DNA of 56,007 nucleotides from Alphaproteobacteria bacterium (GTDB lineage: Bacteria; Pseudomonadota; Alphaproteobacteria; UBA6615). The notes under the pieces were generated by a model. It saw nothing but the letters and a program-made list of their open reading frames with translations. It did no database searches and had not been told where the DNA came from. The position numbers were made by a program, and so were the translations under genes. Below, one piece after another: positions 2,523 to 30,354 of the stretch (positions are counted from its first letter, which is position 1; every line of letters starts with the position of its first letter). The DNA lies in contig JAPKDV010000002.1 in the NCBI GenBank assembly GCA_028822385.1, forward strand, positions 1 through 56,007, given 5' to 3'.

Positions 2523-3052
2523 TCGCCATGGCTGAAACCAGCTGGTCAGATGCCCTGTTTGACGTTCTGGTGCGTCAGGATATACGTCAGGTGGCCTATG
2601 TGCCCGACGCGGGACACACTAGGCTGATCGAGCGCTGTACCGCGTATCCGGCGATGGAAACTTCGGTTCTGACCACGGAGGAGGAAGGCATCGCCCTGCT
2701 GGCTGGTGCTTGGCTGGGAGGCGATCGCGGAATATTGCTGATGCAGTCTTCGGGTGTGGGCAATTGCGTGAACATGCTTTCCCTGATCGAGAATTGCCGG
2801 ATGCCGTTTGTGAGTCTGATCACGATGCGTGGCGAATGGGGTGAGTTCAACCCGTGGCAAGCCCCGATGGGGCTTGCGACCCCGGACGTGCTGAACCGGA
2901 TGAATGTGCAGGTACATCGGGTTGATGCGCCGGCAGATGTCGTAGTTACACTCGATGCTGCGATTGCTCAGTCCTATGACGGTATGCTGGCTTCTGCGGT
3001 TTTACTCTCTCAGCGTTTGATTGGAAGTAAGGATTTTGAGGTAGTAGATTGA
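2519..3052 (+). CDS. TPP-dependent decarboxylase, alpha (N-terminal PYR domain) subunit, sulfopyruvate decarboxylase ComD-like
   Basis: About 175 aa with a TPP_enzyme_N-like sequence (VAYVPDAGHTRLIE...TTEEEGIALLAGAWLGG...LLMQSSGVGNCVN). Size and pairing with the next gene match split ComD/ComE enzymes. Start is GTG 2519 or ATG 2528. Confidence 0.7.
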   Translation: MIAMAETSWSDALFDVLVRQDIRQVAYVPDAGHTRLIERCTAYPAMETSVLTTEEEGIALLAGAWLGGDRGILLMQSSGVGNCVNMLSLIENCRMPFVSLITMRGEWGEFNPWQAPMGLATPDVLNRMNVQVHRVDAPADVVVTLDAAIAQSYDGMLASAVLLSQRLIGSKDFEVVD

Positions 3053-3053
3053 T

Positions 3054-3644
3054 ATGACTGACAGTCTTTCACTTCTGGATCGCAGAGAAACTGTTGCCTG
3101 TTTACTACGTGATCGGGGTGACCTGCTTGTCATATCTGGGCTTGGCTCGGCCACCTATGACGTAGCCGCTGCTGGCGATGACCCACGAAACTTTTATCTC
3201 TGGGGTGCGATGGGTGGCACAGTCGCCATGGCCCTCGGTCTGGCACTGGCGCAACCTGAACGCCCGGTTCTCGCGATCACCGGTGATGGCGACATGTTGA
3301 TGGGAATGGGTTCGCTGGCGACAATTGGTGCTAAACGCCCTGCAAACCTCTCGGTCGTGGTTTTAGATAATGAAGTCTATGGTGAAACAGGCGGCCAGCC
3401 GACGGCAATCGCCCATGGCGTTGATCTGGTCACGGTCGCACGTGGATGCGGGCTGAACGCGCTGGACCACATCCGTGACATGAATGGGGTGGGAACACTC
3501 GCCGAACGCATACATCGGGCCGATGGTCCGTTGTTTGCCAACATTAAAATTGATGCGCAGGAATATGTGCGGGTGCTGCCGGCACGTGATGGCGTCTGGT
3601 TGCGTTCGCGCTTTCGTGAGGCCGTATTGGGCCTCGCTCCGTAA
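3054..3644 (+). CDS. TPP-dependent decarboxylase, beta (PP-binding domain) subunit, ComE-like
   Basis: TPP-binding motif GDGDMLMGMGSLATIG...VVVLDNEVYGETGGQ. It starts 2 nt after the alpha subunit stop. Confidence 0.7.
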   Translation: MTDSLSLLDRRETVACLLRDRGDLLVISGLGSATYDVAAAGDDPRNFYLWGAMGGTVAMALGLALAQPERPVLAITGDGDMLMGMGSLATIGAKRPANLSVVVLDNEVYGETGGQPTAIAHGVDLVTVARGCGLNALDHIRDMNGVGTLAERIHRADGPLFANIKIDAQEYVRVLPARDGVWLRSRFREAVLGLAP

Positions 3645-3658
3645 ATTTGGAGGGAAAG

Positions 3659-4543
3659 ATGACTAAGAAGATCGGAATACTGGGATTGGGTTTAGTTGGG
3701 CGCGTTGCGGCCGAGAAATTGATGCCCGAGGGCTACGAATGCATCGCCGTGCGTCGTCTCAGTACAGAAGATTTCCCCGATACGGGTGGCAAGCTTGTGG
3801 AAACGGCGCGAGAACTAGCCGCTACTTCAGATATTGTGATTTCGGTGCTACCCAGTGTGGAAGCGTCACGGATAGCTCTGGAGGGGCCGGAGGGTCTGAT
3901 CGCCGGTGCACATGATGGCCTCACCATCATTGAAATGAACACCTTCCCAGTATTGGAGAAGGAGAGCATCAAGATGCTTGTAGATCCAACCCCAGCATCT
4001 ATCATCGATTGCCCGATCAGCGGCACCCAGCCGATTATTCGGGCGGGTAACGGCGTGATTATGATGAGTGGCGAGGAAGCTCAGTGTGAAGCCGTCCAGC
4101 CGATGCTTGAGGCGATCTGCCCGAAGACGTTCTATGTCGGCGCTTACGGGACGGGGATCAAGCTCAAACTGATGATCAACTTCATGGTTGGTGCCAACAC
4201 GGTCGCACTGGCCGAAGGCATGTTGTTCGGTACGTCTATGGGGCTCGATCCCCAATTGATGATTGATATCGTTGGGCCGAGCGCTGCCGGGTCGACAGTT
4301 TTCAATATGCGCGCGGGAATCATTAAGGACCGGGCTTGGCAGCCCTGTGCCGGGCCAAGCAAGCTGCTCTGGAAGGATCTGGATATTGTCGAGGAGCAAG
4401 CCGATGCTCTGGGCCTGTCCGCCCCGATCCTGCGACTGTGCAATGACTACTACAAGAAGATTGAAAAAGCTGGCCGTCTCGAAGACGAATGTTCTGTGGT
4501 CTATGAAATTCTTGAAGCCGAAACCAAAGCCGCTGTGGAATAA
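3659..4543 (+). CDS. NAD(P)-dependent beta-hydroxyacid dehydrogenase (3-hydroxyisobutyrate / 6-phosphogluconate dehydrogenase-like family)
   Basis: N-terminal Rossmann motif KIGILGLGLVGRVAA and a C-terminal all-helical domain (GTGIKLKLMINFMVGANTVALAEG). ATG 3659 is preceded by GGAGGG. Confidence 0.8.
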   Translation: MTKKIGILGLGLVGRVAAEKLMPEGYECIAVRRLSTEDFPDTGGKLVETARELAATSDIVISVLPSVEASRIALEGPEGLIAGAHDGLTIIEMNTFPVLEKESIKMLVDPTPASIIDCPISGTQPIIRAGNGVIMMSGEEAQCEAVQPMLEAICPKTFYVGAYGTGIKLKLMINFMVGANTVALAEGMLFGTSMGLDPQLMIDIVGPSAAGSTVFNMRAGIIKDRAWQPCAGPSKLLWKDLDIVEEQADALGLSAPILRLCNDYYKKIEKAGRLEDECSVVYEILEAETKAAVE

Positions 4544-4545
4544 GC

Positions 4546-4568
4546 CTGTTTCACGTATGTGAGAACAG
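4546..4568. terminator. Hairpin between convergent genes (possible bidirectional terminator)
   Basis: CTGTTTCAC-gtat-GTGAGAACAG (9 bp, one bulge) sits in the 7-nt gap and over the 3' end of the lactonase gene. There is no clear U-tract. Confidence 0.3.
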
Positions 4569-5468
4569 TACCCGGCCGGAGGTTGGAAGCGTGGCTGTTA
4601 GGATACAGCCGCTTGATGATTCCGTGATGTAGAGCGTGTGGTTGTCCGGTCCGCCAAAGGCACAATTGGTGACCGCCAGGCCTTTGCTTGTGTTGATCCG
4701 GTAGAGTGGCTCACCGATCGGACTGAACACCCAGATTGCGCCCAGTCCCACATGGCAGACCAGTATATTGCCGTTGGCGTCAGTAGCCATTCCGTCGGGG
4801 CCTGTGCCTCCTGAAAGCTGAATAAAGCGTCCCACCTGATCGGCGCGTGCACCCGCATTTAACCGCATGCGCCAGACCGCGTTGTCGCGGGTCAGTCCAA
4901 CGAAGAGAATGTTCTCCTCTGAATTCAAGACCAATCCATTCGGGCTTGGGAGCTGATTACAGATCAGGTCGAGGGTTCCATCTGCGCGGAGGCAGAAGAC
5001 GCGCCCGGAGCGATCAATCAAATCGGACGTTCCCTGATCGGTGAAATACAGATTGCCATTGCTGGCATAGGTCAGATCATTGATGCCGCGGAACCGTTCA
5101 TTGGTGTTGCGCACCAGCATTGGTTCGACCGTGCCATAGACAGGGTCGAGCCGCATTAGTCCGTGGTAGTGGTCGGCGATGACGCCATAGCCGTCCCGAT
5201 GGAACGCCAGACCGTTTGGCTCGCCGTCATATTCACAGGCAATTTCGATGCTGCAGTCCGGCGCAACCCGTAACAACCGGCCCCAGGCCACATCCACTAG
5301 CCAGAGATTTCCGTCGCGATCGAAGGAGGGCCCTTCGAGAAAGCTTGGTGTGTTGGGGCGACCAAACAGCAAGTCAGCCCATTCCGAGGGTCGGTCGTGA
5401 ATACCATGCACGGCGTTCACGTCGACATAAAGTTCGGTTTCGATCACGGGTGGCGCTGCGAACATCAC
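4551..5468 (-). CDS. SMP-30 / gluconolactonase / LRE family lactonase-like protein
   Basis: 305 aa beta-propeller-type sequence (EGPSFDRDGNLWLVDV..., PNGLAF, NDLTYASNGNLYFTD, PNGLVL, GPDGMATDANGN). The start overlaps the meaB stop (ATGA, 5465-5468). Confidence 0.85.
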   Translation of the reverse strand: MMFAAPPVIETELYVDVNAVHGIHDRPSEWADLLFGRPNTPSFLEGPSFDRDGNLWLVDVAWGRLLRVAPDCSIEIACEYDGEPNGLAFHRDGYGVIADHYHGLMRLDPVYGTVEPMLVRNTNERFRGINDLTYASNGNLYFTDQGTSDLIDRSGRVFCLRADGTLDLICNQLPSPNGLVLNSEENILFVGLTRDNAVWRMRLNAGARADQVGRFIQLSGGTGPDGMATDANGNILVCHVGLGAIWVFSPIGEPLYRINTSKGLAVTNCAFGGPDNHTLYITESSSGCILTATLPTSGRVLFSHT

Positions 5469-6364
5469 GCGTCTCGCCTGCTTGGGTTCAGTTTGGCGAT
5501 GAGCGCATCAAAAAGCCCCCGCGGGTCGAGGTCGAGCAGGCTGTTATCGGCTTCCATGATTTCATCAATCCGCCGCGCGATCAGGCCCTGCGCTTGGTAA
5601 CGCGCTCGCGCCCGCTGGGTGGCGGTCTCATCCATACGCGCTTTCCGCCACTTGGCATGGGCTGAGATGGCCGCGTCCAACCTAGCAAAGCCTTCGAGGT
5701 CATTGCGAGAGGTGCTGATCACCGGGGGTGCCCAGCCATCGGCGGTTTGTCTCTCTGCGACCTGCTGGATTTCCGCAACCATCAGTTCAGCCCCGGGCAG
5801 GTCAGCCTTGCTGACCACATAGATGTCCGCCATCTCTAGAATGCCGGCTTTCATGGCCTGAATGGCGTCGCCGGATTCCGGCAAGAGCACCAGCACAACT
5901 GTGTCGACGAGTGTGCGGATCGTGTATTCCGCCTGTCCAACGCCGACGCTTTCCAGAATTACTTCATCGAATCCATGGCCTTCCATTGCGGCTAATAAAT
6001 CTGCGGTGTTGTCTGCGAGGCCGTCATGAGAGCGTCGGCTTGGGATGGAGCGGATGAAAATGTTCGGGTCATCGGCGATCGCGTCCATGCGAATGCGATC
6101 GCCCAGAATGGAACCCTTCGAAACCGGGCTCGTCGGATCGATCGCCAGAACTGCGATTTTATGGTCCTCACCTTTGCGCAGCTTTGCCAGTCGGGCGATG
6201 AGCGTACTCTTGCCTGCACCCGGTGCGCCCGTAACGCCGATGCGCGACATCTCCGGTGTGGGGACTGCACCTTGCTGGGCGAGGGTCTCGGCCACATCGG
6301 CATTGGCAATGCGCGACAAGGCGCGGCTGAGTGCCCGGCGCGGATTGCTCGACGTCTCACTCAT
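5465..6364 (-). CDS. meaB: Methylmalonyl-CoA-mutase-associated G-protein chaperone (MeaB/ArgK family)
   Basis: P-loop GVTGAPGAGKSTLI and the SIMIBI GTPase layout (VLAIDPTSP...GDRIRM, ESVGVGQ, VSKADL). 4-nt overlaps on both sides. Confidence 0.9.
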   Translation of the reverse strand: MSETSSNPRRALSRALSRIANADVAETLAQQGAVPTPEMSRIGVTGAPGAGKSTLIARLAKLRKGEDHKIAVLAIDPTSPVSKGSILGDRIRMDAIADDPNIFIRSIPSRRSHDGLADNTADLLAAMEGHGFDEVILESVGVGQAEYTIRTLVDTVVLVLLPESGDAIQAMKAGILEMADIYVVSKADLPGAELMVAEIQQVAERQTADGWAPPVISTSRNDLEGFARLDAAISAHAKWRKARMDETATQRARARYQAQGLIARRIDEIMEADNSLLDLDPRGLFDALIAKLNPSRRDA

Positions 6365-7503
6365 TTCTCTGGGATCACCGTCGGCGTACCGAGAATTTCT
6401 TCGGTGTGCTCTCCAAGCATGGGTGGGCGGCCATATCGTGGCGTGTGCCCTGACATCTTAATAGGGTTTCCAATAACGCGCAGGGCGCCGTTAGGGGTGG
6501 GGATCACCGCGATCATGTCGCGTGCTGCGGCCATCTCGCCTTCCAGAGCTGTCTCCAGAGTTTCGACACCGGAAATCACAATGCCTTCACCACCGAGCAG
6601 CGTGACCCATTCTGCGGTCGTTCGTGTCTTCATCAATGTTTGGACGGCTTTTATCACCGCATCACGGTTTTCCAAACGCGCATCCATGGTCGCAAACAGT
6701 GAATCAGTAGCCTGTTCGGTCCAACCCACAACGTCGCAGAATTTGTGCCAGAACTTGTCCGTGGATACGAACAGCATGACGTAACCGTCGCGGGACGGAA
6801 ATACTTGCGCGGGGACCATATAGGGATGGGCACTGTTGGGCATCCGCTCGGGAACTATTCCATGGTTTAGATAACCGGACGCGAGATAGTTGAGCTGGGA
6901 CAGCATGGTGTCGAAGAGGGAGATATCCACCTGACCACCTTTGCCTTCGATGATCTTGGCCAGCATTCCAATCGCGCCCATCATGCCCGTGGAATTATCG
7001 ACGGCGGAGTATCCCGCTTTCGTGGGCACTCCACCTGGTTCCCCAGTCAGGGACATCACGCCCGTGAGTGCCTGAACGATGTAGTCGTAAGCGGGTTTGT
7101 CGGAATAGGGGCCTTCGAGGCCGAACCCGGTCAATGCCACACAGATTAGTTTTTCGTTGTAGGTTTTCAAGTGCTCATAGGTCAGTCCGAAACGCCTGAT
7201 TGCGGAAGGACGCAGATTGCTGATCAGTCCGTGTGTGTCCTTGACCAATGCGCCGAGTTTGGCGCGCCCGGCTTCGGTGTGTAGATCGAGGACGATGGAG
7301 CGTTTGTTGCGATTCAGGCTGGCGAAATAGTCGTTGTAAGGCCCGGTAAATTGTTTGGTGATGTTTCGAGCCATGTCGCCGTCCGGTGGCTCGACCTTGA
7401 TGACATCGGCCCCCAGATCACCAAGGATCATGCTGCTGAACGGCCCGGCGAGCACGTGGCAGACTTCAACAATCCGGATTCCTGAAAGTGGACCCTCGCT
7501 CAT
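6361..7503 (-). CDS. Family III CoA-transferase (CaiB/BaiF/Frc family)
   Basis: Typical N-terminus GIRIVEVCHVLAGPFSSMILGDLGADVIKVEPPDGD with a length of 380 aa. Translationally coupled to the mutase small subunit and to meaB. Confidence 0.9.
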   Translation of the reverse strand: MSEGPLSGIRIVEVCHVLAGPFSSMILGDLGADVIKVEPPDGDMARNITKQFTGPYNDYFASLNRNKRSIVLDLHTEAGRAKLGALVKDTHGLISNLRPSAIRRFGLTYEHLKTYNEKLICVALTGFGLEGPYSDKPAYDYIVQALTGVMSLTGEPGGVPTKAGYSAVDNSTGMMGAIGMLAKIIEGKGGQVDISLFDTMLSQLNYLASGYLNHGIVPERMPNSAHPYMVPAQVFPSRDGYVMLFVSTDKFWHKFCDVVGWTEQATDSLFATMDARLENRDAVIKAVQTLMKTRTTAEWVTLLGGEGIVISGVETLETALEGEMAAARDMIAVIPTPNGALRVIGNPIKMSGHTPRYGRPPMLGEHTEEILGTPTVIPEK

Positions 7504-7898
7504 GCGTTAAGGTCCGCTTCGACTGCAGCAACAACCTCGTCAAGGTCCATCTCTGCGGTGAAGATACCTCGCGCGCCGGCTTGACGCAGTTCGTCGTGAT
7601 CTTCGCTCGGTATCGTGCCACCGACGAACAAATGAATATCACCAGCGTCGAGTTCGGCTAGGCATCGCGCCGTCTCTTCGACCAGTTCCTTGTGGCTGCC
7701 CGACAGGATCGAAAGGCCGACTGCATCTACATCCTCGTCCACGGCAACCCGGGCAATGTAGTCTGGGCTGCGGCGCAGGCCGGTGTAGATCACATCTGCA
7801 CCAGCATCGCGTAGGGCCAAGGCTATAATTTTCGCACCGACATCATGTCCGTCGAGGCCGGGCTTGGCGATAAGGATACGCTTTCCATTCAGGCTCAT
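7500..7898 (-). CDS. Acyl-CoA mutase small subunit (cobalamin-binding domain)
   Basis: 132 aa. Base-off/His-on motif DxHxxG is present (LDGHDVGAKII), plus SGSH...GG typical of B12-binding Rossmann domains. Confidence 0.9.
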   Translation of the reverse strand: MSLNGKRILIAKPGLDGHDVGAKIIALALRDAGADVIYTGLRRSPDYIARVAVDEDVDAVGLSILSGSHKELVEETARCLAELDAGDIHLFVGGTIPSEDHDELRQAGARGIFTAEMDLDEVVAAVEADLNA

Positions 7899-7907
7899 TG
7901 CTGCACC

Positions 7908-9551
7908 CTACAACCGAACGGGTTCTTCGAATTCGCCCCATTGCGACTTCAATGTAGTAACCATCTCGCCCACAGTGGCATAGGCGTGACAGCAATCAAT
8001 CAGATAGGGCATCAGGTTTTCAGTATCGATTGCCGCAGCTTTCTCTAGTGCGGCGAGCGTTTTGGCGACTTCGGCGTCATCCCGCGTGTCGCGCACGCGC
8101 TCGAATTTCTCAATCACTCGCGAAGATGCCAGCGGGTCGAGCTTGAACAGTTCGGCAACACCCTCGTTCTGATCTTCCCGGCGGAAATAGTTCTGGCCGA
8201 CAATCACGGTCTCGCCGCTATCGACCTTCTTTTTCCGTTCAGACGCACGTTTCGCGATCTTGAGCTGTAGCCAGCCATCTTCAACCGCCTTGGTAACACC
8301 GCCATAGGCGTCAATATCGTCTATTACTTTGGTGATCTCGTCTTCCATCTGATCGGTCAGCCATTCCACATAGTAGCTTCCACCCAGTGGATCGACGGTG
8401 CGTGCGATGCCTGATTCATGGGCTACGATCTGCTGTGTTCGAACCGCGATCTCGGCTGAATGCTCTGTGGGTATCTGATAGGCCTCGTCAAATGCGGCGG
8501 TGAAGATCGACTGTGCGCCGCCCATCACAGCGGCCATGTTCTCAATTCCGACCCGCACCACGTTGTTGTCGGGCTGCGCGCCAACGAGTGATGAACCGCC
8601 ACACACTACGCCGAACCGGAACATCAGTGCTTTGGGGTCCTTCACGCCATAGCGCTGGGTTAGAAGTTTGGCCCAGAGGCGACGGCCTGCTCGGAACTTG
8701 CAGACTTCCTCGAAGAAATCCATGTGGACGTAGAAGAAGAAGCTTAGACGCCGAGCAAATTTCTCCACGTCACCGCCACGCCGGATCAATTCGTCGATAT
8801 AGGCCAACCCGTTGGCGATGGTGTAGCCCATCTCTTCAACAGCTGTACAACCGGCGTCACGCACGTGGGCCCCGGCGATGCTGATGGGGTTGAAGCGCGG
8901 GGTTTGCTCGTTGGAGAACAGGATCGTGTCGGCGATCAGTCGCAATGAGGGGCGCACCGGGAAAATCCATGTTCCGCGCGCCACGTATTCCTTGAGGATG
9001 TCATTTTGAATTGTGCCGGTGAGTTTCTCACGCGGTACACCCTGTTTGTCGGCCACGGCACAATACATGGCGTAGACGATGGAGGCGGTGCCGTTGATAG
9101 TGAATGAGGTTGAGATACCTGCAACATCGATCTCGTCGAACAAAATCTCAGCTTCGGCCAGGTTGGAGAGAGAAACGCCGACCTTGCCAACTTCGGACTT
9201 GGCAATGGGGTCTACTGGATCGTAACCGCACTGGGTTGGCAGATCGAGCGCAACTGACAGGCCGGTCTGGCCCTTGTCGAGGAGGAAACGATAACGCTCG
9301 TTGGATTCTTCAGCCGTACCGAACCCGGAATACTGACGAATGGTCCAGAGCCGACCTCGAAAACCATCCGGAAAAATGCCGCGGGTAAACGGAAATTCTC
9401 CGGGCAGACCTTGATCGGGCTCGCGTACCATATCTGCTGTAACAACTGGCGGCACTTCAATGCCCGATGGTGTCGTCGTGGACGGCTTCGTCGGTGGCTC
9501 TCGATGGGCTTTACTGCCTATCTTGTTAGGGGTCGTTGCGGAATCGCTCAT
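7908..9551 (-). CDS. Acyl-CoA mutase large (substrate/CoA-binding TIM-barrel) subunit, specificity unclear
   Basis: 547 aa, collinear with the MCM alpha catalytic domain as I recall it: FPFTRG...WTIRQYSGFG, GLSVALDLPT, GTIQNDILKEYVARGTWIFP, ISIAGAHVRDAG, RLSFFF. It has no fused B12 domain, which is supplied by the adjacent 132-aa gene. Confidence 0.9.
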   Translation of the reverse strand: MSDSATTPNKIGSKAHREPPTKPSTTTPSGIEVPPVVTADMVREPDQGLPGEFPFTRGIFPDGFRGRLWTIRQYSGFGTAEESNERYRFLLDKGQTGLSVALDLPTQCGYDPVDPIAKSEVGKVGVSLSNLAEAEILFDEIDVAGISTSFTINGTASIVYAMYCAVADKQGVPREKLTGTIQNDILKEYVARGTWIFPVRPSLRLIADTILFSNEQTPRFNPISIAGAHVRDAGCTAVEEMGYTIANGLAYIDELIRRGGDVEKFARRLSFFFYVHMDFFEEVCKFRAGRRLWAKLLTQRYGVKDPKALMFRFGVVCGGSSLVGAQPDNNVVRVGIENMAAVMGGAQSIFTAAFDEAYQIPTEHSAEIAVRTQQIVAHESGIARTVDPLGGSYYVEWLTDQMEDEITKVIDDIDAYGGVTKAVEDGWLQLKIAKRASERKKKVDSGETVIVGQNYFRREDQNEGVAELFKLDPLASSRVIEKFERVRDTRDDAEVAKTLAALEKAAAIDTENLMPYLIDCCHAYATVGEMVTTLKSQWGEFEEPVRL

Positions 9552-9555
9552 CGCA

Positions 9556-10332
9556 TCATCCCTTTTTCGAGGGGAGAACCCGTTCGGCGGCCTCCCAGTG
9601 ATCGTTGTGGACCCATGTTTTCACAAACATCTTTGTTTCGATGTCTTGCATCTCGTCCCGACTTTCGTTCCGGCGATGGGCGTCCGTGACGGCTTTGAAG
9701 GCGCGCATGGATTGGGGCGCCTGTTTTCGCATGGGTTCCAGGTAGGTTTCAACGGTCTCGTTGATATCCTCTCCTTCTGCGCTAATTGCATCGTATAAAC
9801 CAATTTCCAGCGCTTGATCAGGTGAAAGCATTTCGGATGTAGCCATCAACCGCAATCCGCGGGCGCGGCCGACGAGGTTGAGCAGGTCCGGACCGCCGCC
9901 CCATGCGGTTGCGAGTGCCAGACGGCCCTGCACAAATCCGATACTGGCGTGTGCTGCTGCGACCCTAAAATCACAGGATACAGCGAGCTCGGCACCCCCG
10001 CCAAACGCATTCCCGTTCATGGCGGCAATCACCGGAACGGGGAAATCTCGAATCATGTTGAAGGCAGCCTTGGCGTCGAGAGCCATTTTCTCGGCTTCCG
10101 CAGCGGTACGTAATTCTGCTAACTCCCGCAGATCGCCGCCGGCGGCGAAGGTTTTTTCGCCAGCACCCCGCAGGACAGCGGCAATGAGCGTGTCATCAGA
10201 CGCAGCGGTCTTGAATGTGGTTCGAATTGTGTCCAAAATCGAAAGACTGAGCGCGTTGTGCTTCTCGACGCGGTCGATGGTGACGTAGAGAACGCGGTCC
10301 CGCGTTTCTGTGAGAATTTGATCGGTGCTCAT
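9556..10332 (-). CDS. Crotonase-superfamily enzyme (enoyl-CoA hydratase/isomerase fold; possibly an acyl-CoA decarboxylase)
   Basis: Oxyanion-hole segments FAAGGDL and NGNAFGGGAELAVSCDF. The position of the second catalytic Glu of true hydratases is Gln (GFVQGRL). Confidence 0.8.
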   Translation of the reverse strand: MSTDQILTETRDRVLYVTIDRVEKHNALSLSILDTIRTTFKTAASDDTLIAAVLRGAGEKTFAAGGDLRELAELRTAAEAEKMALDAKAAFNMIRDFPVPVIAAMNGNAFGGGAELAVSCDFRVAAAHASIGFVQGRLALATAWGGGPDLLNLVGRARGLRLMATSEMLSPDQALEIGLYDAISAEGEDINETVETYLEPMRKQAPQSMRAFKAVTDAHRRNESRDEMQDIETKMFVKTWVHNDHWEAAERVLPSKKG

Positions 10333-10386
10333 GGTGCTAGTCCGTCCGGTTATATGCTGGAGATGGGCGGCCCCGCTATGCGTGGA

Positions 10387-11472
10387 TCAACTCTCGTCCA
10401 TTTCAGGGGTGCGGTAAATATAGTTGCCGTCCATATAAGTGATAAAGAAGTCGTGGAACGACACGGGTTCGTATTTAGGCGGTTCTCCCGGTTCGATACA
10501 GGACGGAAACGGTTCTGCCACCGTCTCATCGTTACAATTGTAGAAAAAGGTAAGAGCGTAGCGATCCTTGACCGGCGGCACCACGCGGTGCGGGGTCGCG
10601 ATAAAGCGACCATTGGTCCAGCGATTGAAGAATTCACCTGTATTAACGACGATGGCGCCGCGCACGGGTTCGACCTCGATCCATTTTCCTGTCGGGGACA
10701 TCACCTGCAGGCCAGGGACGTCCATCAGCGGCAGGTAGGTCATGGAACTGTGGTCCGCATGGGGAGACAGGGAGAACTGGCCTTCCTCAGCATCCACCGG
10801 CGGATACCAGGCACAGCGATTGTAGTATTCGGGCGTTGAGAATTTTTGGGCGAAGTAGTCTGCGGGAAGGTCGAGCGCCAACGCATAGGCTGGGAGCATG
10901 CGGGTGGCCAGAGCAGCCATGGTTTCTTGGTATTCGAGCAGGGTTTTCCGAAACTTCGGCAATGCGGCCGGCCACTGGTTCATACCGCGGTGACGGACGT
11001 TGGCGGTGACCTTGGGGTCATCAGCTGTGCGTTCGCGCATGAAGGCCCAGGCTTCATTCAGGTCCTTCTTTTCATTTTTAGCGATCTTCGACCAGCGCAG
11101 GATCATTGCCTTGTTAGGGATGAAGCCCTGATGGTGAAAATCGACCTTGTGGTTCATTTTGGATTCGTCGGGCAGAGCAAAGAGTTCAGCGACCTCATCG
11201 AAGGCGTCGTCGATCACGTTTTGTGCGACCCCGTGATTCACAATGCAGTAGAATCCGAGCCCTTCTTGAATCGCACACAGGTCAGTCGCGAATTGTTTTA
11301 CAGCTTCCTGTTCGCCGGACATGTAGCCGCTGATATCGATGACGGGGATCCGCTCATCGGCGAGGCATTGCGCGACGTAGCCTGAAACCTTTGGCTCTAA
11401 ATCGACAGCTTTGGGCATGACGTATTTCTCCCATTTCTCGAGAGGCCGGAATGTCTCCTTATCAGGCGACAT
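10387..11472 (-). CDS. 2-oxoglutarate/Fe(II)-dependent oxygenase (isopenicillin-N-synthase-like family)
   Basis: DIOX_N-like N-terminus (IPVIDISG...GFYCIVNHGV), facial triad HxD...H (SPHADHSS ... TPHRVV) and RxA/S (RYALTFF). The start could also be the Met at codon 19 (MPKAVD). Confidence 0.8.
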   Translation of the reverse strand: MSPDKETFRPLEKWEKYVMPKAVDLEPKVSGYVAQCLADERIPVIDISGYMSGEQEAVKQFATDLCAIQEGLGFYCIVNHGVAQNVIDDAFDEVAELFALPDESKMNHKVDFHHQGFIPNKAMILRWSKIAKNEKKDLNEAWAFMRERTADDPKVTANVRHRGMNQWPAALPKFRKTLLEYQETMAALATRMLPAYALALDLPADYFAQKFSTPEYYNRCAWYPPVDAEEGQFSLSPHADHSSMTYLPLMDVPGLQVMSPTGKWIEVEPVRGAIVVNTGEFFNRWTNGRFIATPHRVVPPVKDRYALTFFYNCNDETVAEPFPSCIEPGEPPKYEPVSFHDFFITYMDGNYIYRTPEMDES

Positions 11473-11499
11473 TCCGGCTAAACCAATGAAATTGGCTGA

Positions 11500-12615
11500 C
11501 TACTGCGCCGCCGCAGCACTTTCCTCGTCGTTGGGAACGAGGTCAGCGAGGTTTGGCATGACCTCTTTCGCGAACAAATCCATGTTAGAAAGCCAGTCGT
11601 CGAACGGCTCATAGACATACTGGACTTGCAGGACGGTCCCGAAACCACCGGTGTCGTCATAGAGCTTACGCAACTTCTCTGTGACCGTATCAGGGCTGCC
11701 GACAATCCAGATGTTGTCGCAAATGTACTCCGCCGTCAGATCCTCATCCTTAATGTCGTCGTTCTCCTTGTAGAGATCGACGACGCCCAGGGACTTCAGG
11801 ACGTTGTACATATAGTCGTTATAAGCCTGGGCCATGCCGCCACTCAGTGCGTGTTCACGTGCTTCCGCGTCGGTCTTTCCGACATAGATTTCACGCGCCA
11901 CCCGCCAGTCCTTGCGGTGAGGTGTGCGACCGGTTTCCTTGGCACCCTTCAGAACTGCATCCCAATGGGTGTTAAGGTTGCCGGCGGGCAGATAATTAAC
12001 ACTCATCGGAATCCAGCCTTCACGGCCCGCTGTTTCCAACGATTCTGAATATTTGTGCAGACCGGCCACCGCGATGGGTGGGTGGGGGTCCTGGTAGGGT
12101 CGGATATGATGGTAGAGCGGAATATGCGGCATCGGCTCGGGCACTTTGAATTGCCAGAACTTACCGTTGTGCTCGAACGGGTCTTCCTCGGTCCAAAGTC
12201 GTTTGATGGCGTTGATGGATTCGCGCATCCGCTCGCGGTGCTCGCCTTCCTGATAATCGATATCAAAGAACTGGAAATCCGTAGGGGCGCCGCCGGCCCC
12301 AATGCCGAAGTTCAGCCGGCCCTTCGACAGATGATCTAGATAGGCGATCCGCAGGGCGACAAGCCGGGGGTCGTGCATCGGTAGCAAGGTAACACCGGTA
12401 CCAACACGGATCCGCTCCGTTTGGGCAAACACCGTGGCGGCGAATAGATCTGTCGCCGGAATTGGTTCCCAGGGGATGGTGTAGTGCTCACCCATCCAGC
12501 CCTCGGCATAACCTAGTTTGTCGGCGTGGACAAAGGTCTGGACATCTCGGTGATAATTGCCGGTTACGTCGCCACCGGGCGGACGCAGTGGCATGCTGAA
12601 CATTCCGTATTTCAT
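11500..12615 (-). CDS. Luciferase-like (LLM class) flavin-dependent monooxygenase
   Basis: MKYGMFSMP... start, then GYAEGWMGEHY, RVGTGVTLLPMHDP, GRLNFGIGAGG, typical of the bacterial luciferase family (the LimB-like group is only a guess). ATG 12615 is preferred over 12633. Confidence 0.85.
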   Translation of the reverse strand: MKYGMFSMPLRPPGGDVTGNYHRDVQTFVHADKLGYAEGWMGEHYTIPWEPIPATDLFAATVFAQTERIRVGTGVTLLPMHDPRLVALRIAYLDHLSKGRLNFGIGAGGAPTDFQFFDIDYQEGEHRERMRESINAIKRLWTEEDPFEHNGKFWQFKVPEPMPHIPLYHHIRPYQDPHPPIAVAGLHKYSESLETAGREGWIPMSVNYLPAGNLNTHWDAVLKGAKETGRTPHRKDWRVAREIYVGKTDAEAREHALSGGMAQAYNDYMYNVLKSLGVVDLYKENDDIKDEDLTAEYICDNIWIVGSPDTVTEKLRKLYDDTGGFGTVLQVQYVYEPFDDWLSNMDLFAKEVMPNLADLVPNDEESAAAAQ

Positions 12616-12761
12616 TGCATCTGTCTCCCACAAGACTTCGGGCGCGAGCGGCTTCTAGGCCACTTTTTTCGCGTGATGTTATGATTGTAGGGGAAGGTGG
12701 GTCATGGGAGTCAACCGCGTTCAGTAGCGGGAAGAATTTTTCACATACCAGAAATGTTGTC

Positions 12762-12778
12762 GGGGTCCGTAAGACCCC
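12762..12778 (+). promoter_or_regulatory. Perfect 6-bp inverted repeat in the divergent control region / 5' leader
   Basis: GGGGTC-cgtaa-GACCCC lies 33 nt upstream of ATG 12811, within the 195-bp divergent intergenic region. Confidence 0.3.
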
Positions 12779-12810
12779 CTATCGTTGCCGAATATTTGGG
12801 AGAGAAACCG

Positions 12811-13590
12811 ATGTTGATTGGTAAAAAAGGTGAGGCGAAAAGCGCGATCGAAACCGCAGATGCGTCTTCGATAACCGTGCGCGGCAAGGATTTGTGCAAC
12901 GACGTCATGGGGCATGCCTCAATGGCTGAGTTTTTCTATTTTCACCTGACGGGACATGAACCTACAGAGGATCAGGCATTCTTTCTGGACGTTCTGGTGG
13001 TTGCTCTGGCCGAGCATGGCCTGACCCCCAGCGTGCAGGCGGCACGAATGACCCTAGCGGCTGCGCCAGAAGCGTTTCATGGCGCGGTGGCTGCTGGTCT
13101 GCTCGGTGTTGGCTCAGTGATCCTGGGCAGTGCCGATGTGTGTGGCGTGATGTTGGATGACGCTGCCAGTCGCATTGAAGCAGGTGTATCAGCAGAAGAT
13201 GTCGCGCTGGTGATCGCCAGAGAGCATAAGGAATCCGGGAAGTTCATTCCGGGATTTGGGCATCCGATCCATCATCCTGTTGACCCCCGGGCTGTCCGGA
13301 TACTCGCGCTGGCCGATGAACGTAGTGTTGCCGGCCGTCATGTAAATGCGCTTCGGGCTTTCCCCTCAGCCGTTGAAGAGGTCTGGGGCAAGCCTCTGCC
13401 AATGAATCTGCAGGGGCCGATGGCTGCGGTCCTGCTTGATCTTGATTTCCCCAAGACGGCCATCCGAGGCCTTCCTATCCTTGCGCGCACGATCGGTTTG
13501 ATCGGACATCTGAACGAAGAGATTGAACGCCCCATCGGATTTCTCCTCGCCCATCATGGCGAAGAGGCAATCGAATATGACGGGGAATAG
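12811..13590 (+). CDS. Short citrate-synthase-family protein (citryl-CoA-lyase-like)
   Basis: About 259 aa. Contains the citrate synthase catalytic-His motif GFGHPIHHPVDPRA and a second His region GLIGHLNEEIERP, but lacks the large N-terminal part of true citrate synthases. ATG 12811 is preceded by GGGAGAG. Confidence 0.75.
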   Translation: MLIGKKGEAKSAIETADASSITVRGKDLCNDVMGHASMAEFFYFHLTGHEPTEDQAFFLDVLVVALAEHGLTPSVQAARMTLAAAPEAFHGAVAAGLLGVGSVILGSADVCGVMLDDAASRIEAGVSAEDVALVIAREHKESGKFIPGFGHPIHHPVDPRAVRILALADERSVAGRHVNALRAFPSAVEEVWGKPLPMNLQGPMAAVLLDLDFPKTAIRGLPILARTIGLIGHLNEEIERPIGFLLAHHGEEAIEYDGE

Positions 13591-13594
13591 CCCC

Positions 13595-14926
13595 ATGACC
13601 TCTCATGAACTGTTCGACCCTGAGGCCGAAACCCGGGAACCAGCCGATCAGAAACGGAAAGATGAACCGGTCTACCGAAAACAGGTCGAATACCTGTTTG
13701 CGAAGTCTGCTTTTTATCGGGAGAAGCTCGCCGAGGCCGGGTTCAAGACACCGGAATCCGTGGGGGGACTTGATGACCTTCGGCACCTGCCTTTCACGGT
13801 AAAGGACGAGCTGCGCGCCAGTCAGGCCGAACACCTCCCACTGGGCAAACAGCTGGCCGCGCCGCTCGACGATATCGTGAGAATCTACTCGACCAGCGGC
13901 ACGTCAGGCACACCTCTTTATATTCCGGTCACCGATGGTGATCTGAAGCGCTGGATTCACACCTCGAATCGCAGCTATTTTGCTGCCGGGATCCGCCCGC
14001 ATCATCGTGTGGTCACGACATATAATTCGGGTCCGTTTGCGGCGGGTGCCGTGCATGAATCCATGATCGCGCTGGGAGTGCGTATGGTGCCGGTCGGCAG
14101 TGGTAACACCGAGCGCCTTTTGACGGCCCTCTCGCGCTTTCAGGTGCAGGCAATCCCCGGCACGCCGTCCTATTTTCTCTACATCGCAGAAGCTGCACGT
14201 GCGCGCGGGATTGATCCGCGGTCGGTGGGGCTTGAAACCCTCGTCGCCGGTGGCGAGCCCGGGGGTGGTGAGCCCACTGTGCGCGCCCAGATTGAGGCTG
14301 CCTTCAATGCCAAGGTGCACGAGGTTCTCGGGCTGGGCGAACTTTCAATTTCCATGTTCGGTGAAGGTCCTGAGCAGGATGGCATGAACTTCCTTGCGCG
14401 CGATTACATTCACATGGAGCTGATCGATCCGATGACCGAACAGCCGATCCCGTTCGAGGATGGCGTGGAGGGTGAGCCGGTCTACACCCATCTGATGCAG
14501 GAAGGTGCACCGTTGTTGCGGTTTCGCTCGCGCGACCATGTGCAGGTCCGTATGGGACCTGTCGCCAGTGGACGCACCGGTCCACGCATTCGTTGTGTAG
14601 GCCGCACCGATGACATGCTGATAGTCCGCGGCGTGAATGTGTTTCCCAGCGCCATCCGCGAGGTGGTGAACGATTTCCAGCCACATGTCAGCGGTCTGGT
14701 TTCGGTGCGTCCGTCTAAAAAAGGCGTGCAACAACTGCCGCCGCTTAGGGTCTTTGTGGAAGTTGCCGAGGGTCCGGATGCCGAGTCGGGACTGGCGGAC
14801 GCCATCGAAAAGGCTATACGGGCTCGTCTAATCTTTACCGCCCGGATTGAACTGGTGCCGTTCAATTCCCTGCCACGCTCTGACTATAAGAGCCGGTTGG
14901 TCGACTACATTGATGCTACAGACTGA
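13595..14926 (+). CDS. Adenylate-forming acyl-CoA ligase, phenylacetate-CoA ligase (PaaK)/F390-synthetase-like
   Basis: AMP-binding P-loop YSTSGTSGTPLYIPVT, GEPGG, GRTDDMLIVRGVNVFP. Size about 443 aa. Start is ATG 13595 (GGGGA 8 nt upstream) or ATG 13577. Confidence 0.8.
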   Translation: MTSHELFDPEAETREPADQKRKDEPVYRKQVEYLFAKSAFYREKLAEAGFKTPESVGGLDDLRHLPFTVKDELRASQAEHLPLGKQLAAPLDDIVRIYSTSGTSGTPLYIPVTDGDLKRWIHTSNRSYFAAGIRPHHRVVTTYNSGPFAAGAVHESMIALGVRMVPVGSGNTERLLTALSRFQVQAIPGTPSYFLYIAEAARARGIDPRSVGLETLVAGGEPGGGEPTVRAQIEAAFNAKVHEVLGLGELSISMFGEGPEQDGMNFLARDYIHMELIDPMTEQPIPFEDGVEGEPVYTHLMQEGAPLLRFRSRDHVQVRMGPVASGRTGPRIRCVGRTDDMLIVRGVNVFPSAIREVVNDFQPHVSGLVSVRPSKKGVQQLPPLRVFVEVAEGPDAESGLADAIEKAIRARLIFTARIELVPFNSLPRSDYKSRLVDYIDATD

Positions 14927-15077: not shown

Positions 15078-15770
15078 TCATTTCTCGGATTTGGGCAGGG
15101 CAAAGGGGTTGAAACTGGTAGCGTTGTCGTAATGATCGACGCTTTCGCTTTTCTTTAGCCAGCCAACGACAGCATAGGTGATCGGCGTCGCCAGTACCTC
15201 ATAGCCCAGTTTGAAGACGATCTGGGTAAGAACCAACGTGATCAGCACTTCGTTGGGGAACACGCCAAAGAAGGCGACCGTGATGAACACGCTAGAATCG
15301 AGGGTTTGGCCGACAATGGAAGACCCGAGCGTGCGTACCCACAGGTGGCGTCCGGCCATGGCAACCTTGAGGCGGGCCAGAATATAGGAATTCGCAAATT
15401 CACCGATCAAATAGGCGGCAAAAGAAGCTGCTAGAATACGAGGGGTTGCGCCGAGGATCGTTGCATAGGCGTCGCCATGCTCCCAGAACCCAGCGGCGGG
15501 CAGTGCGCCGACCAGCATAAATGTCGCCACGGCAAGAAGATTAGCGCCAAATCCGATCCAGATTACGGTTCGGGCCTTGGCGAAACCGTAAACTTCCGTC
15601 AGAACATCGCCGATGATGTAGCTAATAGGAAAGATCACGATGGCACCGGGAATAACATAGCCCCAGACATTGATAAGTTTTACTACAGTGATGTTCGACA
15701 CTAGCAAACAAGTGACGAACAAGACGGCGATAAAGAGAAAACGGGGCGTCAATGCGGTCATGTCGTCCAA
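15078..15770 (-). CDS. yhhQ: Queuosine-precursor transporter (YhhQ / DUF165, VUT family)
   Basis: 230 aa polytopic membrane protein with the family signature FPISYIIGDVLTEVYGFAKARTVIW. Divergent from queA. Confidence 0.85.
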   Translation of the reverse strand: MDDMTALTPRFLFIAVLFVTCLLVSNITVVKLINVWGYVIPGAIVIFPISYIIGDVLTEVYGFAKARTVIWIGFGANLLAVATFMLVGALPAAGFWEHGDAYATILGATPRILAASFAAYLIGEFANSYILARLKVAMAGRHLWVRTLGSSIVGQTLDSSVFITVAFFGVFPNEVLITLVLTQIVFKLGYEVLATPITYAVVGWLKKSESVDHYDNATSFNPFALPKSEK

Positions 15771-15859
15771 GAAGTATTTTGATTGTCGGATTTGAACAGG
15801 CTAATGGCAGTCCAATGGCGCAACTGTCAATTGACCAGAACTAAAGTACGAGACGTGGT

Positions 15860-16891
15860 TTGAAAACTTCCGACTTTGATTTTGACCTTCCCGGTGAGTT
15901 GATCGCCCAGCGACCGGCCGTACCGAGAAACTCTGCAAGGTTGCTTGATTTGCGAGAGCAGCCGGCCGATCGCGTCATAGCGGACCTGCCAGGCATTCTG
16001 GAGCCCGGAAGTTTACTTGTAGTCAATGATACTAGTGTGATCCCCGCGCAGCTTGAAGGCCATCGTGGGGAGGCTAAAATAGGTGTGACCCTGCACAAGA
16101 ATGAAGGGGCGGGGGAATGGCTAGCGTTTGCGAAGAATGCCCGGCGCCTTAAGCTTGGTGACGTGATCGAATTTGGCGGTGATTTCGCCGCAGAGGTGAT
16201 GACCCGTGATGGCGCTGAGGTTCGTCTTCGGTTCAACATATCGGCCGAGAGCTTCCGCGATGCGCTGGAAGAATATGGTCGACCGCCACTGCCCCCATAT
16301 ATCAAGCGATCTGAAGCGCCCGACCAAGACGATGTCGCAGACTATCAAACCATGTTTGCGGCCCATGAAGGTGCTGTTGCCGCGCCCACAGCAGGTTTGC
16401 ACTTCACCCCCGATCTGGTGAGGGAGCTTGACACTGCCGGCCTCTCGCTGGTCTCTCTTACGCTTCATGTAGGGGCAGGGACGTTTCTGCCCGTGACGGC
16501 GGACTCTGTCCGCGACCACAAGATGCATTACGAATACGGTGAGATTTCGGATGCGGTCGCGGGTCAGATCAACGCAGCGCGGGCGGACAACCGAAAGATA
16601 GTCGCGATAGGAACCACCGTACTACGCTTGCTCGAATCTGCTGCGAAACTGGATGGCAGTCTTCCGCCCTTTCGCGGAGACACGAACCTATTCATCACGC
16701 CGGGGTACAGCTTTCGGATTGTGGATCAGCTCCTAACTAATTTCCATCTACCGCGCTCTACATTGTTTATGCTCGTATGTGCGTTTGCCGGGATGGAACG
16801 GATGCACGGCGCCTATACCCATGCCATTGAGAACCGTTACAGATTTTTCTCCTATGGTGATGCGACCCTGCTCGAACGTAGGAATCGGTAA
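15860..16891 (+). CDS. queA: S-adenosylmethionine:tRNA ribosyltransferase-isomerase
   Basis: N-terminus (TTG start) MKTSDFDFDLPGELIAQRP, then PPYIKR, HVGAGTF, GTTVLRLLES, FHLPRSTL. Confidence 0.95.
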   Translation: MKTSDFDFDLPGELIAQRPAVPRNSARLLDLREQPADRVIADLPGILEPGSLLVVNDTSVIPAQLEGHRGEAKIGVTLHKNEGAGEWLAFAKNARRLKLGDVIEFGGDFAAEVMTRDGAEVRLRFNISAESFRDALEEYGRPPLPPYIKRSEAPDQDDVADYQTMFAAHEGAVAAPTAGLHFTPDLVRELDTAGLSLVSLTLHVGAGTFLPVTADSVRDHKMHYEYGEISDAVAGQINAARADNRKIVAIGTTVLRLLESAAKLDGSLPPFRGDTNLFITPGYSFRIVDQLLTNFHLPRSTLFMLVCAFAGMERMHGAYTHAIENRYRFFSYGDATLLERRNR

Positions 16892-16931
16892 TGTTAGGAA
16901 TGTGCGATAATCATGCGCGGAGAAGAGAGTT

Positions 16932-17396
16932 ATGAGTGAAGACATCTATGAAGGTCTGACCCAATTGGGTGGTAATGCAGAGCTACCCACCTCACCGGAG
17001 AAGGCAATTCTCGAGCGGGTGCCCAATCCGAAGAAGGATGCGACCTATCTAATTCGGTTTACCGCACCGGAATTTACCTCTCTATGCCCGATCACCGGTC
17101 AGCCTGATTTTGCTCATCTCGTAATCGACTATGCGCCGCGGGACTGGCTAGTCGAAAGCAAATCGCTAAAGCTTTTTCTGGGCTCCTTTCGCAATCACGG
17201 AGCCTTTCATGAGGCCTGCACGGTGGATATTGCCAAGCGCTTGGAAGCGTTTTTAGAGCCGATTTGGATTCGGATTGGCGGCTACTGGTTCCCGCGTGGG
17301 GGCATGCCGATTGATGTGTTCTATCAGTCAGACCAACCCCCTGTGGGCCTCTGGCTGCCAGATCAGGGTGTCGCGCCCTATCGTGGTCGCGGTTAG
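16932..17396 (+). CDS. queF: NADPH-dependent 7-cyano-7-deazaguanine (preQ0) reductase, unimodular type
   Basis: 154 aa. Catalytic Cys context [14 protein letters not shown] and QueF motif ESKSLKLFL. Confidence 0.95.
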
Positions 17397-17401
17397 CAGA
17401 C

Positions 17402-30348: not shown

Positions 30349-30354
30349 CCGGCG

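Follow-up and report, generated by a model that had tools for sequence, protein, structure and literature searches.

A putative catabolic island around a split B12-dependent acyl-CoA mutase of an uncharacterised subfamily in a marine alphaproteobacterium

Gene content and organisation of the locus

The stretch analysed here, positions 1 to 56,007 of contig JAPKDV010000002.1 (assembly GCA_028822385.1) and referred to as the window, belongs to the chromosome of an uncultured marine alphaproteobacterium and has a GC content of ~56%. It contains a region that is best explained as a catabolic island of ~15 genes around a split adenosylcobalamin (AdoCbl)-dependent acyl-CoA mutase of an uncharacterised subfamily. 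The closest genome records are metagenome-assembled genomes (MAGs) from Saanich Inlet, Tara and FRAM, whose mutases are 92-96% identical to that of the window. The rest of the window is housekeeping, i.e. the dcw cell-division cluster, ligA, recN, lpxC, a split metH and queuosine genes.

Genes were called from a listing of open reading frames (ORFs) and assigned to families by Pfam and NCBIfam scans (Table 1). A preliminary description of this DNA had reported eight co-directional minus-strand genes running from 12615 to 4551, and both their order and their families are borne out. Along this block the first four gaps measure 27, 54, 4 and 9 nt, and the remaining three junctions are 4-nt overlaps. 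The sequence ATGA, described before for all three, holds for two of them (7500-7503 and 6361-6364), whereas the third (5465-5468) reads GTGA if translation begins at GTG, or TGATG if it begins at the next ATG. The genes for a citryl-CoA-lyase-like (CCL) protein and a PaaK-like ligase indeed diverge from the gene of the luciferase-like monooxygenase (LLM) across exactly 195 bp. Gene order and near-identical junction lengths recur in 15-22 related genomes, and a 13.3-kb stretch of the window is collinear with the related locus L002 at 80% nucleotide identity, so that the arrangement of the block goes beyond chance. Thus, of the earlier proposal of one translationally coupled operon, the tight spacing and the synteny stand as observations, and from these two we infer co-transcription of the eight genes. 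Generic sigma-70 promoter and terminator scans of the region gave results at chance level, and an Rfam scan found no riboswitch or other Rfam element.

The earlier inventory was incomplete, as it missed a convergent operon encoding an IclR-family regulator, a thiamine pyrophosphate (TPP)-dependent decarboxylase and a β-hydroxyacid dehydrogenase, together with a flavin reductase gene, all as conserved as the oxygenase genes. A gene for a hemerythrin HHE-domain protein (754-1368, plus strand) overlaps the 5' end of the flavin-reductase ORF. The true start of the PaaK-like ligase is probably ATG 13577 or 13595.

Table 1. Features of the region and presence of the genes in related loci. Marine clade: 23 loci, mutase at least 79% identical; other loci: 57; denominators are loci with enough flank.
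Feature	Position	Strand	Family match or remark	Marine clade	Other loci
Flavin reductase	2-871	-	PF01613, E 5e-24		
IclR-family regulator	1767-2522	+	PF09339 + PF01614; first gene of convergent operon		
Split TPP-dependent decarboxylase	2519-3644 (alpha 2519-3052, beta 3054-3644)	+	PF02776, PF02775	20/21	0/37
β-Hydroxyacid dehydrogenase, HIBADH/tartronate-semialdehyde-reductase family	3647-4543	+	PF03446 + PF14833	20/21	0/37
SMP-30/gluconolactonase-like (SGL) β-propeller hydrolase (lactonase)	4551-5468	-	PF08450; last gene of operon, accessory	7/21	0/41
MeaB-type G-protein chaperone	5465-6364	-	PF03308	21/21	30/44
Family III (CaiB/BaiF/Frc-type) CoA-transferase	6361-7503	-	PF02515	22/22	31/52
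Mutase small B12-binding subunit	7500-7898	-	PF02310, TIGR00640	22/22	56/56
Mutase large (substrate-binding) subunit	7908-9551	-	PF01642		
Crotonase-fold protein	9556-10332	-	PF00378	22/22	54/55
Fe(II)/2-oxoglutarate (2OG) oxygenase, DIOX_N + 2OG-FeII_Oxy type	10387-11472	-	PF14226 + PF03171	17/18	0/48
LLM flavin monooxygenase	11500-12615	-	PF00296; first gene of operon	15/15	0/43
Divergent control region	12616-12810	.	195 bp		
CCL-like protein, short citrate-synthase fold	12811-13590	+	NF004868	14 loci	none found in presence mapping
PaaK-like acyl/arylacetate-CoA ligase	13523-14926	+	PF00501 + PF14535	13/14	0/37

When the 195-bp region was aligned from 15 loci, its sequence turned out to have diverged except for a few conserved blocks. 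These are a promoter-like pair on the LLM side (TTGACT at 12714-12709 and TACAAT at 12689-12684, 19-nt spacer), a second one on the CCL side (TTGTCG at 12757-12762 and TATCGT at 12780-12785, 17-nt spacer) and, between the two pairs, the palindrome TTTC-N8-GAAA at 12739-12754; both Shine-Dalgarno sites are conserved as well. This pattern agrees with a single regulated divergent promoter region in which the LLM gene is the first gene of its operon. Only chance-level matches turned up when the window was searched for another copy of the palindrome (TTTCAC-N6-GTGAAA), and in an alignment of the DNA preceding the IclR gene the start sites differ. The IclR-family protein probably controls the divergent promoters. 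Its longest ORF begins at ATG 1686, but a promoter-like element, TTGACT-N17-AAAAAT, lies inside this ORF at 1731-1759, which makes ATG 1767 the likelier start. With this start the mRNA would be nearly leaderless. The -35 context of the element, GTTGACTCC, is shared with the LLM promoter.

The split mutase and its core partners

The large subunit of the mutase matches PF01642 over 512 of 512 profile positions (E 1.4e-194) and reaches 646 bits with TIGR00641 (cutoff 304). With the NCBIfam equivalog model for methylmalonyl-CoA mutase (MCM), NF006944, it scores 557.6 bits, i.e. below the cutoff of 876, a shortfall that is partly due to the split architecture. Its nearest solved structures are HcmA (4r3u) and human MCM. 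The small subunit comprises 132 amino acids, scores 134 bits with TIGR00640, carries the DxHxxG motif as GLDGHDVGAK and is present in 78 of 78 loci.

To compare the substrate pocket, 81 family members were aligned with E. coli ScpA and then with a split MCM from Brevibacillus, Methylibium HcmA and others (Table 2). The Brevibacillus protein can be regarded as a bona fide MCM because its gene adjoins mce, encoding the epimerase, and a carboxyltransferase gene. At least 95% of the 81 family members share an altered pocket signature, whereas SGYH, HxQT and HTN are kept in E. coli ScpA, human MCM, the Brevibacillus split MCM and HcmA. The split mutase with an altered pocket that had been noticed in the window is thus confirmed, and the alteration is family-wide.

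Table 2. Pocket elements of the mutase family compared with the MCM and HcmA references.
Element	Mutase family	References
Tyr89	RQYSGFG (kept)	RQYAGF
Arg207	(V)ARGTW (kept)	present; ScpA LCRNTY
Tyr243-His244	AGAH (Tyr to Ala)	SGYH
His-x-Gln-Thr strand	FGVVCGG (replaces HCQTSGW)	HxQT(S/A)G
His-Thr-Asn strand	FT(A/C)A (window FTAA for HTNA)	HTN

Tyr89 and Arg207 (P. shermanii numbering), which we take to be the carboxylate-binding residues of MCM, form a clamp that is kept in the family, and the substrate should therefore carry a free carboxylate. Tyr243, Gln330 and Asn366 presumably line the cavity common to the substrate and 5'-deoxyadenosine in MCM structures. The exchange of aromatic and polar residues for small or hydrophobic ones is what would be expected if the pocket holds an additional hydrophobic substituent.

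An ordinary MCM, i.e. a propionate module that came to lie beside unrelated oxygenase genes by chance, would agree with the name methylmalonyl-CoA mutase given to the protein in the databases, with the retention of Tyr89 and Arg207 and with the crotonase-mutase pairs found among housekeeping genes in some MAGs. Nevertheless, we consider this explanation highly improbable and reject it on the pocket evidence, since the three elements exchanged in at least 95% of the family are kept even in HcmA. Moreover, the score with the MCM equivalog model lies far below its cutoff, no epimerase or carboxylase is linked to the mutase, and the oxygenase genes have a fixed order and spacing in at least 15 genomes, in which they come with a conserved shared control region.

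The clade is discrete, as mutase identity in plasmid records drops from 72.8% to 56% at the next relatives. No labelled ethylmalonyl-CoA mutase is found among these plasmid matches. The 56% relative is encoded on a plasmid of Streptomyces sp. N50 (NZ_CP137550.1, locus L090, 3777-13274) and has a pocket of like type (AGSH, FGCVAGG, FTAA). The gene order around it is ligase, amidohydrolase, ligase, mutase large subunit, small subunit, luciferase-like monooxygenase, family III CoA-transferase and short-chain dehydrogenase/reductase, and this locus is an independent association of mutase, LLM and transferase in an actinomycete.

To our knowledge, the characterised specificities of acyl-CoA mutases are few and comprise methylmalonyl-, isobutyryl-, ethylmalonyl-, 2-hydroxyisobutyryl- and pivalyl-CoA, with two more, for aryl- and alkyl-substituted substrates, having been proposed. 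In a HMMER scan of 1.84 billion cluster representatives the nearest 150 (P0121-P0270) include many other pocket variants that are so far unassigned, e.g. SGSH/YAGSGG/HACS and SATH/STGALG/NGGC at the Tyr243, HxQT and HTN positions. The substrate diversity of acyl-CoA mutases thus looks much larger than the characterised set, and the clade described here appears as one well-defined case in a large unexplored superfamily.

The crotonase-fold protein has IGF[IV][QH]GRL..TAWGGG in place of FGLPE..PGxGGT. Among 17 family members the position of the first hydratase glutamate is occupied by Gln or His and that of the second by Arg, Ser or Ala; the two catalytic glutamates are those that we take to be Glu144 and Glu164 of rat enoyl-CoA hydratase (ECH). 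As both are absent, the protein cannot be a canonical hydratase. At its C-terminus it carries a TWVHxDHW motif with invariant Trp240 and His245. The most economical role for such a protein beside a mutase is that of an (alkyl)malonyl-CoA decarboxylase, which we predict on these grounds.

The transferase is a full-length PF02515 protein (366 of 366 positions) with YfdE, SUGCT and Frc as PDB matches, and when it is aligned with E. coli Frc and YfdE the catalytic Asp169 proves invariant. Its best NCBIfam models, weak in both cases, are those for succinate-glutarate and succinyl-CoA:mesaconate CoA-transferases, so that its nearest likeness is to family members specific for dicarboxylates. It is predicted to activate a free dicarboxylate. 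MeaB matches PF03308 (E 1e-68) and scores 237.7 with TIGR00750, just under the cutoff of 240.75. In the NCBIfam scan no equivalog fits any protein of this core, and the public annotations of the core proteins are all generic.

Distribution of the core and of the marine genes

A scan with one genome per species yielded 238 stretches that encode relatives of the mutase. The best 80 loci were kept, and the proteins of the window were mapped onto them (Table 1). Clustering of the longest ORFs in the flanks picked up antisense ORFs in GC-rich loci and was used only to choose Pfam candidates. The distribution reveals two evolutionary layers. The core layer consists of the crotonase, the split mutase, usually the family III transferase, and MeaB, with only crotonase and mutase being universal; in 76 of the 77 loci with enough flank, the crotonase gene is found directly upstream of that for the mutase. 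The shell layer, found in ~20 marine alphaproteobacterial MAGs, consists of the LLM, the 2OG oxygenase, the ligase, the CCL-like protein, the TPP decarboxylase and the hydroxyacid dehydrogenase.

The conservation of the eight-gene neighbourhood suggested by the preliminary description therefore holds within one clade, where seven of the eight genes form a conserved block, whereas the evolutionary unit is a five-gene core. Treating oxygenases and lactonase as one unit with the mutase module is not supported, as the oxygenases are confined to one marine alphaproteobacterial clade and the lactonase is present in only a third of the loci even there. Within this clade the junctions are 20-32 nt (LLM-2OG oxygenase), 47-60 nt (2OG oxygenase-crotonase), 4 nt (crotonase-mutase) and 9 nt (large-small subunit), followed by two 4-nt overlaps. 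In place of the lactonase, deeper-branching loci of the clade (L014, L017-L020, L059) have genes for α/β-hydrolase, cupin and MFS proteins.

In other bacteria the core is accompanied by its own regulator and by uptake genes. Billgrantia endophytica has the order TAXI-TRAP transporter, IclR, crotonase, mutase large subunit, small subunit, transferase, MeaB and PduO-type adenosyltransferase. The same core operon is found in Sulfitobacter dubius (on a plasmid) and in Paraburkholderia largidicola (on a chromid), ending in TAXI-TRAP or TRAP genes, and other core loci contain TctC (TTT) or LIV-type ABC uptake genes. Thus, in Billgrantia, Sulfitobacter, Paraburkholderia and MAGs, a unit of IclR, crotonase, both mutase subunits, transferase and MeaB, with or without adenosyltransferase, adjoins TAXI-TRAP, TRAP, TTT or ABC genes, and in most non-marine loci the IclR gene lies directly upstream of the crotonase gene. 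A plasmid of Marinobacter sp. M3C (L086, 4944-16862) encodes crotonase, mutase, transferase, a MeaB-like protein and adenosyltransferase without regulator or transporter. This block is bracketed by insertion sequences, with IS5 and IS630 at one end and IS21 at the opposite end, which suggests that the core travels as a mobile cassette. Bradyrhizobium manausense (NZ_JAFCLG010000002.1) carries two copies of the core ~30 kb apart (L030 and L074), one with family III transferase and IclR, the other with neither.

In a Hyphomicrobiales variant (L082) the family III transferase is missing and a protein with an AcetylCoA_hyd_C domain, which we take to be the Pfam family of the ScpC-type transferases, is encoded nearby; this is the only locus with such a protein. 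Four unrelated uptake families and the possible replacement of the transferase by an unrelated type point to the import of a free carboxylate and its activation through CoA transfer. The core is conserved and horizontally mobile and, in other bacteria, coupled to carboxylate transporters.

As to the shell, the best solved homologue of the LLM is 3,6-diketocamphane 1,6-monooxygenase (3,6-DKCMO; 4uwm, E 5.5e-49), which aligns over the full length (residues 2-356) with an identity of ~30% as judged by eye from the alignment, which is too low to fix the type of reaction. Among luciferase-like TIM-barrel proteins the LLM belongs to the DKCMO/LuxA subgroup. Plasmid homologues are 34-41% identical and have generic annotations, save for one older label, "limonene 1,2-monooxygenase", which lends weak support to the proposed role. 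The flavin reductase is syntenic, with 65-91% identity, in L002-L005, L007, L008 and L010, and is a probable partner of the LLM, which is probably a two-component Baeyer-Villiger-type enzyme. An earlier guess at Baeyer-Villiger chemistry hence gains support at the level of family resemblance, from the full-length alignment with 3,6-DKCMO, the syntenic flavin reductase and the presence of a lactonase or esterase. The lactonase itself matches PF08450 (E 3e-41), with the β-propeller lactonases 7ris and 8djf as best PDB matches.

The best PDB match of the 2OG oxygenase is 9ovh (E 1.6e-42), and its HxD...H triad is visible in the alignment; NCBIfam and PDB searches gave no NCBIfam model match and no informative relative. 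The CCL-like protein scores 298 bits with NF004868 (cutoff 193), its best PDB match is the citryl-CoA lyase 6hxp (E 6.5e-27), and it is 71-92% identical in the 14 marine-clade loci; a 37%-identical homologue is encoded near the core in L084. The PaaK-like ligase reaches 237 with the PaaK equivalogs, against a cutoff of 700. The TPP decarboxylase is of the sulfopyruvate/phosphonopyruvate-decarboxylase type, with TIGR03845 and TIGR03846 below their cutoffs, and the best NCBIfam model of the dehydrogenase is 2-hydroxy-3-oxopropionate reductase (136 bits, cutoff 397). A sulfonate pathway, which the ComDE-like decarboxylase might bring to mind, was rejected, as the model scores lie far below cutoff and no desulfonation genes are present.

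Proposed route and related systems

Based on these findings we tentatively favour, with slightly less than even confidence, a route in which the core carries out CoA transfer, 1,2-rearrangement and decarboxylation of a substituted succinate that, in the marine clade, is derived from Baeyer-Villiger ring opening. The substituted succinate is the substrate that we infer. A free C4-dicarboxylate, i.e. a succinate with a hydrophobic or branched substituent, would first take CoA from succinyl-CoA or from the product acyl-CoA. The mutase would then shift the thioester carbon to give the matching substituted malonyl-CoA, with Tyr89 and Arg207 holding the free carboxylate as in MCM and the loss of Tyr243, HxQT and HTN making room for the substituent. 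Finally, the crotonase-fold protein may decarboxylate the substituted malonyl-CoA to an ordinary acyl-CoA for β-oxidation. MeaB would load and protect the cofactor of the mutase.

In the marine clade, the dicarboxylate may be made intracellularly from a cyclic ketone or an alicyclic acid. The DKCMO-like Baeyer-Villiger enzyme with its flavin reductase would insert oxygen, and the lactonase (or the α/β-hydrolase in sister genomes) would open the ring. The 2OG oxygenase, β-hydroxyacid dehydrogenase and TPP decarboxylase might trim the product, and the PaaK-like ligase together with the CCL-like enzyme could release acetyl-CoA from a side branch.

Several points weigh against this route. With E. 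coli ScpB the crotonase shares only 22% identity, and it has Gly and Thr at the positions of ScpB His66 and Tyr140, which we take, from the methylmalonyl-CoA decarboxylase (MMCD) structure, to be the MMCD residues. The protein is thus not an ScpB orthologue. A profile of the crotonase family finds only generic hydratases in the PDB, and its relationship to known crotonase-fold decarboxylases appears to be one of fold alone. The pocket changes of the mutase might reshape the cavity rather than enlarge it, and in some loci or MAGs crotonase and mutase lie among housekeeping genes with no transferase nearby. As to the shell, the lactonase is dispensable in most relatives, the 2OG oxygenase, TPP decarboxylase, dehydrogenase, ligase and lyase have been given putative roles from family and synteny alone, and the predicted parts do not yet form a chemically closed route.

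The missing ScpB decarboxylase residues would also suit a net isomerisation. Here an alkyl- or dialkyl-malonate, imported or obtained as CoA ester from a branched acid, would be converted to a substituted succinyl-CoA, with the crotonase acting as C2 epimerase or isomerase and the transferase recycling CoA from product to substrate. Acyl-CoA mutase reactions are reversible, transferase and mutase alone would suffice, and the enolate that a crotonase fold stabilises is the same in epimerisation and in decarboxylation. However, the conserved core comes without a downstream dehydrogenase, hydratase or lyase for a substituted succinyl-CoA. Moreover, locus L083 encodes small Glyoxalase_4 (VOC-fold) proteins beside the core, whose fold is presumably that of methylmalonyl-CoA epimerases, and if so a crotonase epimerase would be redundant there. 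We therefore regard net isomerisation as unlikely. Supply of extender units for biosynthesis was rejected, as there are no genes for polyketide synthases, nonribosomal peptide synthetases or CCR (crotonyl-CoA carboxylase/reductase), and IclR and uptake genes are found instead.

Full-text literature searches found no paper describing this gene set or pathway, in line with the preliminary description, which could not match it to a described one. Closest to the favoured route in functional logic is the E. coli sbm operon (scpA-argK-scpB-scpC, succinate to propionate), which has the same four roles in one operon. In contrast to sbm, the mutase is split and has a remodelled pocket, the transferase belongs to family III (PF02515) and is not of ScpC type, and the core carries its own IclR and uptake system in other hosts and the oxygenase shell in the window; of the four components that define sbm, three have no true counterpart at the locus. 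The transfer, rearrangement and decarboxylation logic borrowed from sbm remains reasonable given the invariant Asp169 of the transferase and a crotonase that lacks the hydratase glutamates and lies upstream of nearly every mutase, although decarboxylation is only probable.

In component families, the iaa operon of Aromatoleum aromaticum is closest, with the ligase IaaB, the family III transferase IaaL, the phenylsuccinyl-CoA/benzylmalonyl-CoA mutase IaaGH and IaaF (PMC8360864). By description, it likewise has a ligase, a family III transferase, a split mutase acting on a bulky succinyl-CoA and a decarboxylating step afterwards. However, the latter is catalysed by an FAD acyl-CoA dehydrogenase, in place of which a crotonase-fold protein is found here, and the ring-opening enzymes differ as well. 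The locus could be an aerobic counterpart in which the ligase activates an arylacetate, the oxygenases and hydrolase open a hetero-ring to give an arylsuccinyl-CoA, the transferase shifts the CoA, the mutase forms an arylmethyl-malonyl-CoA and the crotonase decarboxylates the latter. Indeed, iaa is the sole described catabolic operon that we found to combine a PaaK-like ligase, a family III transferase and a split mutase (PMC8360864), all three of which are encoded in the window, and several bacteria with the core (Azospirillum, Bradyrhizobium, Paraburkholderia, Billgrantia endophytica, Sulfitobacter) live in association with plants or algae. On the other hand, the window ORFs scanned include no IaaF-type acyl-CoA dehydrogenase, hydantoinase-like IaaAE, molybdenum hydroxylase or aminobenzoyl-CoA genes, and most core loci lack a ligase and are paired with dicarboxylate-type transporters, so that we consider such a counterpart quite unlikely.

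For the favoured rearrangement of a substituted succinyl-CoA, MatB/MatQ and ActD provide a precedent for a long alkyl substituent, being split mutases of the HcmA subclass in matlystatin and actinonin biosynthesis with a proposed conversion of hexylmalonyl-CoA to 2-pentylsuccinyl-CoA (PMC5719088). Among solved structures, HcmA is also the one nearest to the window mutase, the likeness to MatBQ/ActD being one by description. Yet these enzymes work in a biosynthetic context, with CCR and epimerase, and in the direction opposite to the route proposed for the window.

The shell resembles the type II Baeyer-Villiger system for camphor (2,5-/3,6-DKCMO with flavin reductase), given the full-length alignment of the LLM and the separate flavin reductase in the window. 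In a model for SAR202 bacteria, alicyclic carbon of the deep ocean is processed by type II Baeyer-Villiger enzymes, lactonases and CaiB-type transferases (PMC5395668). A lactone hydrolase, a CoA ligase and a CaiB-type transferase from this toolkit are also encoded in the window; however, no B12 mutase is described for the camphor and SAR202 pathways, and no cam genes were found in the window.

A more specific version of our proposal, which we regard as possible but rather doubtful, is that the mutase clade represents a new substrate class and rearranges bulky or gem-dialkyl succinyl-CoA esters to the corresponding malonyl-CoA esters (e.g. 2,2-dimethylsuccinyl-CoA to isopropylmalonyl-CoA). With a new crotonase-fold decarboxylase as its partner, such a mutase would enable aerobic bacteria to get past quaternary or branched carbons at which β-oxidation stops, and mesopelagic alphaproteobacteria would add the Baeyer-Villiger ring-opening shell.

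Some neighbouring loci of the window deserve mention. Immediately beside the island, 15078-18553 holds four genes related to queuosine, for a Vut_1/YhhQ-type precursor transporter, queA, a QueF-like protein and queG, an arrangement that is syntenic in the closest MAGs. Further along, a cluster of the methionine cycle at 22820-28438 (plus strand) encodes a fusion of an ArsR helix-turn-helix domain with an S-adenosylmethionine methyltransferase, a methylenetetrahydrofolate reductase and a split B12-dependent methionine synthase, the second B12 enzyme of the window, with a homocysteine S-methyltransferase ORF (24690-25748) and a pterin/B12/activation ORF (25619-28438). At 29167-31449 (minus strand) a ring-opening amidohydrolase of AtzD/TrzD type (barbiturase/cyanuric acid hydrolase family, E 5e-139) adjoins an amidase, a pair that looks like an oxidative pyrimidine or s-triazine ring-cleavage unit. 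Finally, a GMC oxidoreductase gene lies beside a cupin gene at 34908-37116 (minus strand).

The mutase clade is sharply delimited, with a drastically changed pocket, an obligate crotonase partner and its own transferase, chaperone, regulator and transporters. The core is found in cultured, tractable hosts, i.e. Sulfitobacter dubius DSM 109990, Paraburkholderia largidicola, P. caribensis MBA4, Billgrantia endophytica and Marinobacter sp. M3C, so that what would be a new B12-dependent catabolic reaction can be tested directly. The link of the marine clade to a Baeyer-Villiger system of camphor type points to a way in which branched alicyclic carbon might enter β-oxidation, a process that would then also be tied to the availability of B12 in the ocean. 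If the reading with bulky or gem-dialkyl substrates is true, vitamin B12 would be needed for the turnover of terpenoid-like or carboxyl-rich alicyclic dissolved organic matter.

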